Translations under genes and position numbers: made by a program
In this document: one piece after another, positions 17,373 to 30,285 of the stretch
Layout: every line of letters starts with the position of its first letter
Numbering within the stretch: the first letter of the stretch is position 1
Virus record (IMG/VR): IMGVR_UViG_3300028025_000006
Span: 1 to 36,349 of that record
Source of the DNA: a virus
Lineage: Duplodnaviria; Caudoviricetes
Strand: one strand, 5' to 3'
Length of the DNA stretch: 36,349 nucleotides
The notes under the pieces: generated by a model
Database searches by the model: none
Seen by the model: the letters and a program-made list of their open reading frames with translations, nothing else
Told to the model about the DNA's origin: nothing

Positions 17373-18878
17373 ATGGCACGCACTAAAATATCAGAGTTCA
17401 GCGCAACAGCCGCAGACAATACCGACATTGATAATATTGACATTGCAGAAGGCTGTGCGCCATCTGGTATTAACAATGCAATCCGTGAGTTGATGTCTCA
17501 GCTAAAGGATATGCAGACAGGCGCATCCGGCGATACATTTACGCTAACTACGGTTAACTCTACTGCGGTTAACGCTACAACGGTAGACGCTACTAACCTA
17601 GAGGTTACTAACCTAAAAGCAAAGGATGGTACGGCAGCGGGTTCTATTGCCGACTCTACTGGCTTGGTTACTTTAACAAACCTAACTGGCACAACGGCAG
17701 ACTATACCAATTTAGAAGTTACTGACTTAAAAGCTAAAGATGGTACCGCAAGCGCAAGCATTGCAGACTCTACTGGTGTGTTTACTCATTCCACAAATAC
17801 TGTCTTTCCTGCTGGCGCTGTAGCAACTCCGTCCATTACTACGGCTGGAGACACCAACACAGGCATATATTTCCCAGCAGCCGATACGGTTGGGTTTGCA
17901 GCGGGTGGTGTACAAGGTTTTTCAGTAGGTACTACAGCCTCCGCGGTTAACTACTTGGAAGCCAGAGGAGCAGCTACAACAGCCGCACCAAGAATTGTCG
18001 CTCTAGGCACAGACACTAACGTACCGATTGCTTTTGTAGCAAAAGGCACAGGCGATATACGGTTTACTACAGACGCATCTGAGCGTGTAAGGATTGATGG
18101 TTCTGGTAATGTTGGAGTCGGTACAAGCTCTCCCGGTGCCGCGTTTCATGTTGCTGGCGCAATTACCGCATCACCGACTGGCGATGGAGTGTTATTAGGA
18201 CTTGAAAGTAATTACGGCGCTATTCACCTAAACGGGTCGGCTGGTGGGTATATTGACTTTTCAACATCCGGTACAGATTACAAGGGACGGGTTACTTACG
18301 ATAATGTAACTAATGCAATGGCTTTTGCTACAGATTCAGCAGAACGTATGCGTATTAGCTCAGGAGGTAACTTATATATAGGAACTACATCTCCTGTTGC
18401 TGGGACAAGGGTTGCTATAGATTGGAACGCATCTACGCAATATGGTCTTGTATTTAAAACAACAAGCGCAACATATAACGCAGGACCTATTTTATTTTTA
18501 AATAGCACAGGCGCAGGAGTCGGTAATATTTCTCAAAGTGAGTCAATAGTTTCGTACAATTCAGCCTCGGATTATCGACTAAAAGAAAACGTATTGCCCA
18601 TGACGGGAGCGCTTGCTAAAGTAGCAGCCCTAAAGCCTGTTACCTACACATGGAAAGTGGACGGTAGCGCAGGACAAGGCTTTATTGCCCATGAGTTGCA
18701 AGAGGTTGTTCCTGATTGCGTAACAGGAGCAAAAGACGCTGTTGATAAAGACGGAAAACCTCAGCATCAAGGCGTAGATACATCATTCCTTGTGGCTACT
18801 TTAACGGCAGCAATCCAAGAGCAGCAATCAATCATATCCGCAATGGAAACTAGACTAGCGGCGTTAGAGGCGCAATAA
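17373..18878 (+). CDS. Tail fibre with C-terminal intramolecular chaperone (Peptidase_S74-like autocleavage domain)
   Basis: ERVRIDGSGNVGVGT and ERMRISSGGNLYIGT repeats, SDYRLKENV cleavage motif, GFIAHELQEVVP and a terminal coiled coil. Confidence 0.88.
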   Translation: MARTKISEFSATAADNTDIDNIDIAEGCAPSGINNAIRELMSQLKDMQTGASGDTFTLTTVNSTAVNATTVDATNLEVTNLKAKDGTAAGSIADSTGLVTLTNLTGTTADYTNLEVTDLKAKDGTASASIADSTGVFTHSTNTVFPAGAVATPSITTAGDTNTGIYFPAADTVGFAAGGVQGFSVGTTASAVNYLEARGAATTAAPRIVALGTDTNVPIAFVAKGTGDIRFTTDASERVRIDGSGNVGVGTSSPGAAFHVAGAITASPTGDGVLLGLESNYGAIHLNGSAGGYIDFSTSGTDYKGRVTYDNVTNAMAFATDSAERMRISSGGNLYIGTTSPVAGTRVAIDWNASTQYGLVFKTTSATYNAGPILFLNSTGAGVGNISQSESIVSYNSASDYRLKENVLPMTGALAKVAALKPVTYTWKVDGSAGQGFIAHELQEVVPDCVTGAKDAVDKDGKPQHQGVDTSFLVATLTAAIQEQQSIISAMETRLAALEAQ

Positions 18879-18919
18879 ATTTGCCTTTTAACACAATGGT
18901 TTAATCTATGTTATACAAT

Positions 18920-18944
18920 ACCCGCTGATGGCGGGTTTTCTTTT
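18920..18944 (+). terminator. Intrinsic terminator between tail and lysis modules
   Basis: ACCCGC-TGATG-GCGGGT followed by TTTCTTTT. Confidence 0.75.
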
Positions 18945-18955
18945 GCGAGACGGAA

Positions 18956-21673: not shown

Positions 21674-21821
21674 GTTCACCCAAAGCACGCCCTGCAAAAC
21701 TTTGATAACGCTGCCACTTTGAAATAATTGCAGCATCTTCTGAGGCTGGAATCCATCCAAGCTCTCTCCATCGTTTTGTAATGCACGTTCCTGCTGGGGT
21801 GTATACATATTCATCATTCAT
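21639..21821 (-). CDS. Hypothetical protein (last gene of the leftward arm)
   Basis: 60-aa ORF MNDEYVYTPAGTCITKRWRELGWIPAS with a GGAG RBS, overlapping the upstream gene end. Confidence 0.65.
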   Translation of the reverse strand: MNDEYVYTPAGTCITKRWRELGWIPASEDAAIISKWQRYQSFAGRALGEPIEQTLVPLTT

Positions 21822-22173
21822 TTGATTCTCCGAGTTTGTTGGATAGTCGGCGGTGTGCCTCATCCAGATTGTTTTGGAACTTCCTTGGTGACATACGACT
21901 AAAGTGCGCTACATGGTTAATGTTGTGATACGGGAAACTTACATAACGCGCTTTTACTGCTACTCTTAATTCTTCTCTCAAGCTACATACAGCAGCCTCT
22001 ACTATGTCTGCGTCTAGGTAGTCTGGCAATATCTCGTCTGTTTCGTCATCATCCCACACAGCACCAGTTTCAGGTAAATAATTACGCTCGGCTGATCTGC
22101 AATGGGTATCTGGCATAGGACCTGTCTCACCTTGTATGGCTAAAGCCCAATTAAACAGACGATCTTTCAGCAT
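21814..22173 (-). CDS. Antiterminator Q-like or sigma-region-4-like late regulator
   Basis: RLFNWA N-terminus, DADIVEAAVCSL and a C-terminal HTH; sits at the end of a nin-like region. Confidence 0.6.
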   Translation of the reverse strand: MLKDRLFNWALAIQGETGPMPDTHCRSAERNYLPETGAVWDDDETDEILPDYLDADIVEAAVCSLREELRVAVKARYVSFPYHNINHVAHFSRMSPRKFQNNLDEAHRRLSNKLGESNE

Positions 22174-26453: not shown

Positions 26454-26991
26454 TTCGTTTTCCTATAAGAACTGGTTGCTCTTTGTACTGGATACCCGCC
26501 ACGCTGTTTTGTTGGGCTGCTATGCCTGTTAACTGCGTAGGTGCGTCTACTGGCTGTCCTGTCGTTTTAATGCCTCTGTAGCGTGTTTGAAACTCTTTAG
26601 CCACAAAAGCCCATTCATCCTCTTTCTTGTTGCCAAGCGCTACCCAGCCGCCCATGTCATAAATAACCTTGTGAATAATCGGATCGGCAAATTGAACGCT
26701 GCGGTATGTGCCTACGGTTCTTACAGCATTGTCTACGGCTGACCATGCCTCCAAAGCAGTATCAATAGTGGTACCGCCAATAAGTTTTACTACGTCTGCT
26801 GGCTTAGGTAGAAACTGACCGTTATCAGGGTTAAGCAAATGTCTTGCAAGCGCATCTTTTACAGCTTTTAAGTCGTACTGGCGCAGAGACTCAAACCAAA
26901 TGCGTAACAACATAGGGCTAACTTCCTTGTTGTATACGGCAAACATACCGCCCATAAATTGAGCAAATTCTTTTTTATCTTCGTCAACCAT
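26395..26991 (-). CDS. DUF6475-like protein, probable helicase loader (lambda P position)
   Basis: IWFESLRQY...HL...FLPKPAD N-domain and A.EAW..V...V.F.DP.IH.VI..MGGW C-domain; directly downstream of the initiator-like gene. Confidence 0.7.
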   Translation of the reverse strand: MVDEDKKEFAQFMGGMFAVYNKEVSPMLLRIWFESLRQYDLKAVKDALARHLLNPDNGQFLPKPADVVKLIGGTTIDTALEAWSAVDNAVRTVGTYRSVQFADPIIHKVIYDMGGWVALGNKKEDEWAFVAKEFQTRYRGIKTTGQPVDAPTQLTGIAAQQNSVAGIQYKEQPVLIGKRNDTKPALDYSYEISRLSSS

Positions 26992-27415
26992 TTATAAATG
27001 CCTCCGCAGCTTGTCTATTGGATGCCTCAAGAGCTTGTTGCTTGCTTGCCTTATGTTGTACCCACTCAGCTTTAAAACTTGTCCAGCCTCTTGTACAAGT
27101 CTCTGCTAGTGCGTTCTCTAGTGTCCACATTGCTAGGTTTGCTTGGGTCTTAATGTTTTGCAGGGCTGACTCTGTTAATGGTGCCTTTTTGGATGCCCTA
27201 AGTTTACAAAAGTCATCCCACACTTGGTCTGATACCTCGTCTGGTTTTTGCACGCCAGAGGTACGCTTTACAACGGTTTTAGGCTTATCCATGCCTTGCT
27301 CGATGTAGTACAAGACTTGTGATCCAAGTGTGCGGTGGTTGGCTGCTGCGTGTGTGGCAATTAACTTACGCAATTCGGCAGGAAGTCGGATAGAAATTGT
27401 TGCGTCTTTAGTCAT
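26984..27415 (-). CDS. Arc-like ribbon-helix-helix domain fused to a replication-initiator C-terminal-like domain
   Basis: N-terminal ISIRLPAELRKLIATHAAANHRTLGSQVLYYIE (RHH); C-terminal PDEVSDQVWDDFCKLRASKKAPLT...RGWTSFKAEW. Confidence 0.7.
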   Translation of the reverse strand: MTKDATISIRLPAELRKLIATHAAANHRTLGSQVLYYIEQGMDKPKTVVKRTSGVQKPDEVSDQVWDDFCKLRASKKAPLTESALQNIKTQANLAMWTLENALAETCTRGWTSFKAEWVQHKASKQQALEASNRQAAEAFING

Positions 27416-29175: not shown

Positions 29176-29349
29176 TTATTTACGAGTCTCAATAACCAAA
29201 GTCGGGAGCAAACTTTGAGCATAAGCAACTGCATCTGATTTTTTGTAAAAGTTTGCAGATTCGTCATAAGGTGTGTTTTCTTCATTATAAGAAGTTACAT
29301 ACCAACATTTGTAAGACTTATCAAACCAAACTTCTATTTTTGCAATCAT
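29176..29349 (-). CDS. 57-aa first early protein (not in the ORF track)
   Basis: MIAKIEVWFDKSYKCWYVTSYNEENTPYDESANFYKKSDAVAYAQSLLPTLVIETRK; CCAAGGAGA RBS. Confidence 0.78.
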   Translation of the reverse strand: MIAKIEVWFDKSYKCWYVTSYNEENTPYDESANFYKKSDAVAYAQSLLPTLVIETRK

Positions 29350-29387: not shown

Positions 29388-29459
29388 ATTGTATACATTT
29401 CAGCACAAATAAACATAGGTGTTTTCCCTAATATGTGCAAATAATTTATTGTGTATAAT
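29388..29459. promoter_or_regulatory. Divergent promoter pair flanking a central TAGG-N7-CCTA palindrome
   Basis: Minus-strand TACAAT at 29393-29388, plus-strand TATAAT at 29454-29459, palindrome centred at 29423; this is the strand-switch point of the genome. Confidence 0.75.
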
Positions 29460-29465
29460 TAACTT

Positions 29466-29565
29466 GTTGGTGTGGAAGCCGATTTAGACCGTTTAAGTCT
29501 GTGTCTTGCCCCTTTGGGGGTCTTCCACCAAGATGCAGATTTAAGCGGTTTTTGCATCTACCAAC
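29466..29565 (+). promoter_or_regulatory. Structured leader RNA with mutually exclusive terminator and antiterminator folds
   Basis: 21-bp stem 29488-29508/29529-29549 (4 G-U pairs) with a U-run; alternative pairings 29466-71/29560-65, 29472-78/29522-28 and 29531-39/29551-59. Confidence 0.7.
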
Positions 29566-29750
29566 CGCCAAGTTGTCGGGTTAATAGACGGCAGGACTTG
29601 GGGATAGCCTCTACTGTGGGATAAGGTATGAGAAAGAGGCAAGGGTGGCGAAGCTAGCGCCCAATACCGAACGGCTGGCGGGTTCTGTGGCTCCGAAAAG
29701 CAAACAGATTAAGGCGCACCTAGGTAAGGCTAGGTTCGTCCACCAAAAAG
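29566..29750 (+). ncRNA. Candidate multi-hairpin non-coding RNA
   Basis: GC-rich stretch without a credible gene, with five consecutive stems (29568-601, 29607-640, 29643-662, 29684-708, 29713-740); G-U pairs favour the + strand. Confidence 0.55.
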
Positions 29751-30055
29751 CAAATGTAGTAACAATACATACTAATAAATATAAATAAGTATATAGACAA
29801 TCCTGATCGGTAATAAACAGTACAACCGTATGGATAATTGTTAAAAACATACCGTTCGGTAAAGAATCTTTACAATCGTTAGGATTATTGTGTTACTGTT
29901 TACATGTGGGGCTGGGCTTTAGCAACCTAGTAGTATCGAGTGGTATACGCAGACCTAAGTTCCTTGGCAGGCACTTGCACTCTTTGCCACTCATGTTTAA
30001 TTTTCTAATTGGAAAATCCTGCTTTATGGAAACCCACAACTTATTTGGAGACAAG

Positions 30056-30202
30056 ATGTATAAAGGATTTAGCTTGCACAGCGTAGTGTCCAGACCTCAC
30101 TCTATGTCTATTCTGGAAAAGCCTAGTTTGATTGGTGGACACCATATAGAGTCTATCTATGCAAAAAAACCACAACCTATTGTGGACAAGAAGAAAAAGT
30201 AG
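30056..30202 (+). CDS. 48-aa basic hypothetical protein
   Basis: GGAG RBS before ATG 30056; MYKGFSLHSVVSRPHSMSILEKPSLIGG...KKKK. Confidence 0.6.
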   Translation: MYKGFSLHSVVSRPHSMSILEKPSLIGGHHIESIYAKKPQPIVDKKKK

Positions 30203-30207
30203 TAACA

Positions 30208-30285
30208 TTTGCGTGGGGAAGTGTTCTCCGCACTTTCTTGGATGTCTCCTTGGTTCTTTGCCCGATTGATTTCGGGCTTTTTTTT
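30208..30285 (+). ncRNA. Candidate anti-Shine-Dalgarno small RNA
   Basis: 5' hairpin, unpaired GAUGUCUCCUUGGUU seed, then a strong intrinsic terminator. Confidence 0.55.
30260..30285 (+). terminator. Intrinsic terminator
   Basis: GCCCGA-TTGATT-TCGGGC followed by T8. Confidence 0.88.

Follow-up and report, generated by a model that had tools for sequence, protein, structure and literature searches.

A compact C4-like leader RNA, probably a kinetic transcription attenuator, in front of the Betaproteobacteria-1 RNA of a phage

Described RNA immunity systems and the leader of this phage

In the phages P1 and P7 the loops of the C4 RNA determine heteroimmunity, and the RNA is processed by RNase P (PMC12197685 and PMC5320573). 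In phage P4, according to PMC4825925, the CI RNA pairs with seqA and seqC, which leads to termination, and IsrK of Gifsy-1 is a structural homologue of the CI RNA which, unlike the output predicted for the leader described below, activates translation. On the plasmid pIP501 RNAIII, a counter-transcript made from a promoter of its own, acts in trans and tips the nascent repR leader to its terminator, which exerts a negative feedback on dose (PMC4981023). Here, we analysed a leader RNA of 100 nucleotides in a phage genome of 36,349 nucleotides (IMG/VR record IMGVR_UViG_3300028025_000006; this whole stretch is called the window). In its anatomy and loop words the leader is like the C4 and CI modules, a kind of system that is already known, and its compact form with a single word is best read as a variant of this kind. 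We propose, with a probability of roughly 60%, that it is a compact C4-like kinetic transcription attenuator which is silenced in trans by its own finished RNA.

By model, the leader is not a member of the families RF01695, RF03163, RF02944, RF01394 or RF02221. A first-pass annotation of the locus had suggested a search of Rfam including the C4 and c4-a1b1 models, and these scans returned nothing above noise on the leader. The C4 model (RF01695) matched neither the genome (E up to 10) nor 20 homologous loci (E up to 1), the c4-a1b1 model (RF03163), in whose alignment the row NC_001609 is presumably P4, gave no match to the leader, and there was none to the c4-2 (RF02944) and sRNA-Xcc1 (RF02221) models. 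The IsrK model (RF01394) likewise left the leader unmatched, its sole sub-cut-off match at 18872-18941 being a plain terminator. An intrinsic terminator lies at 18920-18945 inside the late arm, after a tail-fibre-like gene with a Peptidase_S74 domain.

The likeness to the known systems lies in the arrangement of the parts. As in P1/P7 C4 and in c4-a1b1, the target word is displayed by a hairpin loop shortly downstream of the -10 box, and the loop words GUGGAAG, GUAGGAA, GUGGUAA and UUGACA are common to c4-a1b1 and the leaders described here (supplement of PMC2864571). As in C4, a long closing stem (P1) encloses one or more inner hairpins, and the complementary word stays unpaired in the junction that leads into its 3' arm, at the place it has in C4.sto; the word is variable in the manner of a specificity code. 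Unlike C4, which has the stems P1, P2 and P3, the window copy has P1 and P2 only, with one site, one inner hairpin and no b1/b' pair. Its closing stem ends in a U-run and not in CACCA (a CCA at most 6 nt from the stem occurs in 0/63 leaders), the downstream a2/b2 target at an antirepressor ribosome-binding site is missing, as is the antirepressor ORF, and the predicted output is termination rather than blocked translation. With P4 immunity the leader would share that an RNA derived from it acts in trans on its own transcript and that the output is premature termination. Unlike in P4, where seqA and seqC flank a CI antisense RNA that is a unit of its own, the antisense site and the terminator are here part of one hairpin, and seqC or any other downstream target is missing. 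The canonical C4 and CI RNAs differ furthermore in using two sites and in being cut from a precursor. What compares with pIP501 is that a nascent leader would be pushed towards termination by an RNA acting in trans, but the inhibitor would here be the sense leader itself. Our literature search on C4/c4-a1b1, IsrK/CI/seqA, heteroimmunity and Betaproteobacteria-1, which covered subscription papers thinly, returned no description of the leader.

Anatomy, promoter and homologues of the leader

The window comprises a complete genome, flanked by direct terminal repeats, of a phage in which there were no matches to a tyrosine integrase, a PF07508 recombinase or an HTH_3 repressor. The leader (29466-29565), of which no second copy was found elsewhere in the genome, sits between the leftward and the rightward arm, and its last base directly precedes the Betaproteobacteria-1 RNA (Table 1). 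The O-like replication protein of the leftward arm (26984-27415, - strand) has an Arc-type ribbon-helix-helix N-terminus, and only its C-terminal part matches O-like families.

Table 1. Features of the locus, with positions in the window.
Feature	Position	Strand	Remarks
Leftward arm	from 29349	-	O-like, DUF6475, Erf, RecE, NinB and HNH genes
-10 box TATAAT	29454..29459	+	rightward promoter; -35 poor in the window copy
5' hairpin H1 (GUUGGU/GCCGAU)	29466..29483 (arms 29466-71/29478-83)	+	begins at the predicted +1; GUGGAA in the loop
Site a (GUGGAAG)	29472..29478	+	variable 7-nt specificity word; covariation
Inner hairpin of the read-through fold	29481..29505	+	predicted; holds the terminator 5' arm
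Stem A, terminator (C4 P1-like)	29488..29549	+	21 bp; encloses hairpin CCCC/GGGG (29509-20) and an 8-nt bulge
Site a' (CUUCCAC)	29522..29528	+	predicted cis partner of a on the nascent RNA; bulge-exposed in the finished RNA
U-run of the intrinsic terminator	29549..29553	+	5 U; leaders of the family average 6.9 U over 9 nt
Tail	29554..29565	+	predicted to mask a once read-through has occurred, by pairing with the 5' end and with part of a
Betaproteobacteria-1 RNA (RF02932)	29566..29683	+	99.7 bits, cut-off 49.4; the genome's only Rfam match; first thing gated
Conserved 3' extension of Betaproteobacteria-1 RNA	29684..29753	+	about 70 nt beyond the Rfam model; covarying direct repeat 29695-703, 29745-53
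48-codon ORF	30056..30202	+	has an RBS in front and is conserved in L336; first ORF on the transcript made by read-through
Second intrinsic terminator	30260..30285	+	directly before the glycosyltransferase/terminase/portal genes
Rightward arm		+	glycosyltransferase, terminase, portal and capsid genes

The first-pass annotation had described a bistable attenuator starting at the predicted +1, and all its sequences and coordinates within 29466..29565 were correct on re-reading. G29466 is indeed the seventh base after TATAAT, and a -10-like box 5-8 nt before the equivalent start was found in 32/36 homologues as compared with 33/332 shifted positions; a TTGACA-like -35 is present in 14/36. Because the -35 of the window copy is poor, a consensus promoter scan reported no site at the leader. 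Between the divergent promoters lies an imperfect palindrome, TAGG(N)CCCTA (29416-29430), which is found in 12/36 homologues and is a possible operator. A 50-codon GTG frame at 29472 was considered as a leader peptide and rejected: a ribosome-binding site is not possible so near to the +1, there is no PHROG match, and indels of every length separate the homologous leaders.

Stem A was found exactly as it had been drawn, with arms 29488-29508/29529-29549 and 4 G-U pairs among its 21 bp, whereas the 5' hairpin H1 had been overlooked. The 100-mer has a minimum-energy fold of -46.0 kcal/mol (z = -6.2), which none of 200 shuffles equalled, and the terminator hairpin is predicted to be far more stable on the + strand (-36.8 kcal/mol) than on the - strand (-21.2). 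The predicted anatomy is that of an intrinsic terminator, a stable stem which is directly followed by a U-run.

Homologues were collected by four pattern scans that yielded 384 loci, to which the window was added as the 385th. The downstream RNA is present in 242/385, and the 143 loci without it were dropped. Two of the scans required a U-run, so that its occurrence in 63/63 leaders is partly due to selection; only one scan was unbiased, and it found a terminator leader at 35/86 distinct loci. Eighty-two hairpins were parsed, of which three were set aside, namely L116, which lacks a leader, L135, a plain hairpin, and L127, which is truncated; 79 leaders were left, or 63 at 90% identity. An alignment of 35 rows, made from sequence only, comprises the short-interior leaders with at least six a:a' pairs, with L025 left out. 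In a search for expression, seven sequencing runs showed small shares, and four of them yielded only contigs of relatives, which carry neither RNA ends nor strand; isolated phages and plasmids gave one match each, to the downstream RNA only.

The leaders follow a common plan, in which a -10 box, a GUUG start, the 5' hairpin and a short A-rich linker are followed by a long stem that has a bulge on its 3' side and one or more inner hairpins, the U-run, a tail ending in CAAC and the Betaproteobacteria-1 RNA. The + strand folds better than the - strand in 56/63. A longer interior, in several cases with a second hairpin, is found in 26/63, and two sites (a and b) occur in 8 of these 26 long forms as compared with 2 of the 37 short forms. 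Two-site leaders with a and b words, such as L005, L015, L018, L103 and L170, are nearer to canonical C4 and likewise precede the Betaproteobacteria-1 RNA. The leader lies outside the Rfam model of this RNA and is separable from it: 35/86 distinct loci of the unbiased scan carry it, and an ORF of about 110-140 codons intervenes in L012 (1922-2042) and L014 (1946-2046). In another phage (L332:1637-4019) leader and Betaproteobacteria-1 RNA stand between the scaffold and major capsid genes, which hints that the unit moves.

The plan bears on the suggestion of the first-pass annotation that the leader is a riboswitch-like gate. Terminator and antiterminator folds in a 5' leader are what a platform sensing a ligand or a protein would have, but a conserved pocket is missing: among 35 sequences 5 columns are invariant, and no part of the RNA varies as much as the switching helix. 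In one subfamily the terminator stem repeatedly has a 2x2 internal loop, with CA facing GU or GC (alignment columns 44-45/93-94), which the window copy does not have. We consider such a platform hardly credible.

The variable word, folding during transcription and control in trans

In the 35-leader alignment the terminator stem is paired in 97.5% of cells, and 13 of its 16 pairs have changed on both sides; the 5' hairpin is paired in 93.5% of cells and the tail in 97%. The helix a:a' shows two-sided change at all 7 pairs and is paired in 72.9% of cells, compared with 51.3% after shuffling and 33-53% after sliding; these rows were preselected for at least six pairs, and the unselected test on 63 leaders weighs more. 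There, the duplex between the 5' region and the bulge amounts to -12.1 kcal/mol for cognate and -7.15 for non-cognate partners, and at least six Watson-Crick a:a' pairs are formed in 56/63 cognate as compared with 449/3906 non-cognate combinations (63/63 when a wider search span was allowed, against 23-49%). When a was anchored on the hairpin start alone, 6-7 of 7 pairs were obtained in 50/54 leaders, with a null mean of 3.6. Since different phages can have the same word, the cognate partner takes first place in only 17/63 leaders and is among the best three in 36. Judged from the sequences, the terminator stem, the 5' hairpin and a:a' are kept by compensatory change; together, terminator and a:a' covariation support the first-pass view of an RNA attenuator at the +1 with a logic akin to P4 CI and P1 C4.

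Word a lies in the 5'-hairpin loop and is mostly unpaired in 54/56 leaders, and it is hypervariable, with 31 words among 54 leaders. In 15 word switches between leaders that are at least 94% alike elsewhere, 28/29 changes are compensated; L075 and L318, for example, differ at one of 77 outside bases and by two compensated changes inside. The pooled divergence figure, 0.42 against 0.10, is biased upwards by the filter applied to the outside region; it also ignores gaps and uses pairs that are not independent. The trigger, which the first-pass annotation had left as unknown, is narrowed by this hypervariable and compensated 7-nt word towards RNA pairing in trans.

The three helices of the alternative fold B proposed at first are fully complementary, and fold B, when forced, scores -37.3 kcal/mol, but they do not have equal standing. 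The pairing GUUGGU/ACCAAC is no marker of fold B, as this helix is already present in the minimum-energy fold alongside stem A. A deciding role for the helices that bury the U-run is not supported: the polymerase makes their 3' strands (29551-65) only when it is at the stop point or past it, which leaves the choice to a:a' and the inner hairpins. Conservation, too, separates the proposed pairs: covariation is found for GUGGAAG/CUUCCAC, whereas AGAUGCAGA/UUUGCAUCU (29531-39/29551-59) is poorly conserved, is paired in 60% of cells, reaches -10 kcal/mol or better in 13/79 leaders and differs little between cognate (-6.2) and non-cognate (-5.4) combinations. The helix AGAUGCAGA/UUUGCAUCU was ruled out as the antiterminator on timing and weak conservation. 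A compensated form of it is seen in L203/L311.

When the window copy was folded at increasing length, a:a' dominated at 64-73 nt (0.99 at 64 nt) and stem A from 76 nt. In all of 38 leaders a:a' is favoured (P >0.5) when a' emerges, before the terminator 3' arm exists, and the completed terminator is more stable in 38/38, with a mean gap of 15.8 kcal/mol. Barriers to the terminator, estimated along direct paths without pseudoknots, pausing or polymerase footprint, average 13.4 kcal/mol from a:a' and 5.6 with a blocked (higher from a:a' in 37/38); for the window copy they are 11-15 and 6.2. The bistability at equilibrium claimed for the leader did not hold, with P(A) at 0.998 once the terminator arm is made, and the calculations instead predict a kinetic trap with read-through as the default. 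That the leader is an attenuator in cis appears very likely to us. On the nascent RNA, a' would leave the polymerase just before the terminator 3' arm and pair with a, and this helix would loop around the terminator 5' arm, leaving the hairpin unready at the U-run, so that the polymerase would read into the Betaproteobacteria-1 RNA and beyond.

An alternative is a constitutive terminator of the tR' type that is read through with the help of Q, in which a:a' forms between molecules only, for example as a superinfection signal or for titration by the short RNA. The large stability gap in 38/38 leaders and the exposure of both sites on the short RNA fit such an arrangement. Site a', however, stands immediately before the terminator 3' arm, where pairing in cis would form first in all 38 leaders, and an RNA acting in trans only has no second target here. 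We regard it as improbable.

Recognition in trans is the second part of our preferred reading, the self-silenced attenuator, and we infer it because a purely cis helix has no reason to switch its word between near-identical leaders. The word a' was found downstream in 0/52 leaders, and a, as a second target a2, in 1/52, against a background of about 3.5%, with none nearby in the window. In the window there are five matches to the word, with 3.8 expected, and the sole a' on the + strand is that of the leader. These searches uncovered neither a second source nor a second target, which leaves the a' of the leader itself as the candidate. Finished RNAs would relax to the terminator fold with a' exposed. 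In the predicted folds, read-through lowers the mean unpaired fraction of a from 0.85 to 0.40 and leaves that of a' at 0.88 (38 leaders), and a is hidden with a' free in 25/38 read-through RNAs, compared with 0/38 terminated RNAs. The tail follows the word (cognate a:tail -4.5 versus -2.7). Read-through RNAs, in which the tail would also hide a, may thus be the cleaner source of antisense RNA. The a' of a finished RNA would then bind the loop a of new transcripts, whereby the trap is removed and the terminator can form; the operon would be active in a naive cell and be turned down with the accumulation of its own RNA, and the word would set immunity or incompatibility groups among related phages.

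Several points count against silencing in trans. The duplex would have only 7 bp (-8.9 to -11 kcal/mol) and must beat the intramolecular partner, terminated RNAs, exposing both a and a', could dimerise, the run of 5 U in the window copy is short, and no processing signal is visible. It is possible, though considerably less probable in our view, that the attenuator acts in cis only, a:a' fixing the fraction of read-through via elongation speed, pausing or an override by a Q-like protein, with no RNA in trans. All folding results fit such a device, and the second terminator (Table 1) has to be passed anyway. By model features the last gene of the leftward arm (21814-22173, - strand) resembles antiterminator Q clusters (0.95), and its product, which has a weak match to PA0613 (E 0.066), could explain regulated read-through without an RNA in trans. 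For this protein there is neither a PF06530 nor a PDB match, and a purely cis device leaves the change of the word between near-identical leaders, the place of a in a hairpin loop and the tracking of a by the tail unexplained. Next to the self-silenced attenuator, antitermination by the Q-like protein may form a second layer, as the model features suggest.

An inhibitor could also come from the opposite strand, as a counter-transcript that binds the loop a and causes termination in the way of RNAIII of pIP501. This has the same attenuation logic (PMC4981023) and would explain the variable loops, and a minus-strand -10-like hexamer falls into one bin in 17/38 homologues. That bin, however, is located within the conserved core of the downstream RNA, where the window copy reads TAGCTT (3 of 6). 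The leftward genes, moreover, begin at 29349, with the promoter-like sequence upstream of the leader and not across it, and neither a minus-strand promoter nor a terminator was found in the window copy. We consider a counter-transcript very unlikely.

The gated RNA and its possible role

The read-through product that the leader would gate is the Betaproteobacteria-1 RNA with its 3' extension. The two copies of the direct repeat in this extension are identical at 6.2 of 7 positions within a locus as compared with 4.0 between loci, with at least six identical positions in 75/99 elements, and a Watson-Crick partner of the repeat inside the element was found in 1/99. A terminator right behind the RNA was found in 2/48 and 0/89 cases, and it is therefore probably no free-standing small RNA. 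A separate late promoter near 29891-99 was rejected, as an extended -10-like site is visible there but not kept in L336. The region 29905-30030 is a conserved non-coding island, without an Rfam match, which is shared with L336, partly with L011 and L180, and with related contigs. Control of the leader over the whole rightward arm is plausible, with the further terminator at 30260-85 and the weak lead of a Q-like protein to be taken into account.

The copies without a leader differ in their neighbourhood. When 30 long upstream ORFs on the same strand were picked from 75 loci, a Toprim primase gene was found upstream in 23/30 of the ORFs scanned at leaderless copies, as compared with 3/24 leader-bearing loci. 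The stop codon of a Toprim_3 primase gene lies within about 20 nt of the start of the leaderless RNA in L001, L002, L006 and others, with L385:4083-5098 among the loci concerned, and in Acidovorax phage AP1 the RNA likewise follows the primase gene. On Paraburkholderia and Caballeronia contigs (L218-L265) there are chromosomal copies, in some cases two on one contig, which are preceded by a promoter-like box and a plain hairpin and lie beside non-phage genes. The position of the leaderless RNA beside a Toprim_3 primase gene suggests a link to the origin. RNAs that prime an origin and put-like RNAs that act as antiterminators are both known mechanisms, and these two are the leads for the function of the Betaproteobacteria-1 RNA.

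Taken one step further, leader and downstream RNA could constitute a protein-free circuit of about 290 bases, in which a barcoded, self-silencing attenuator, whose inhibitor is the read-through product, gates an RNA whose direct repeat pairs with its own template DNA and thereby opens or primes the phage origin. We put this forward as a tentative and, at present, rather doubtful extension. If it is true, phages without integrase and repressor would set their copy number and exclude relatives with the same word by RNA alone, and C4-type immunity would be joined to the primer logic of ColE1, whose primer mechanism is the precedent. The module of target, antisense RNA and terminator that is known from P1 and P4 would be compressed into 100 bases and one 7-nt code. 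Dozens of natural code variants on a nearly fixed scaffold make the diversification of a heteroimmunity code testable with short RNAs and the host polymerase, and the leaders are candidate orthogonal transcription switches. Finally, a promoter and a regulator are now placed before an Rfam RNA of unexplained function that is often found 3' of phage primase genes.
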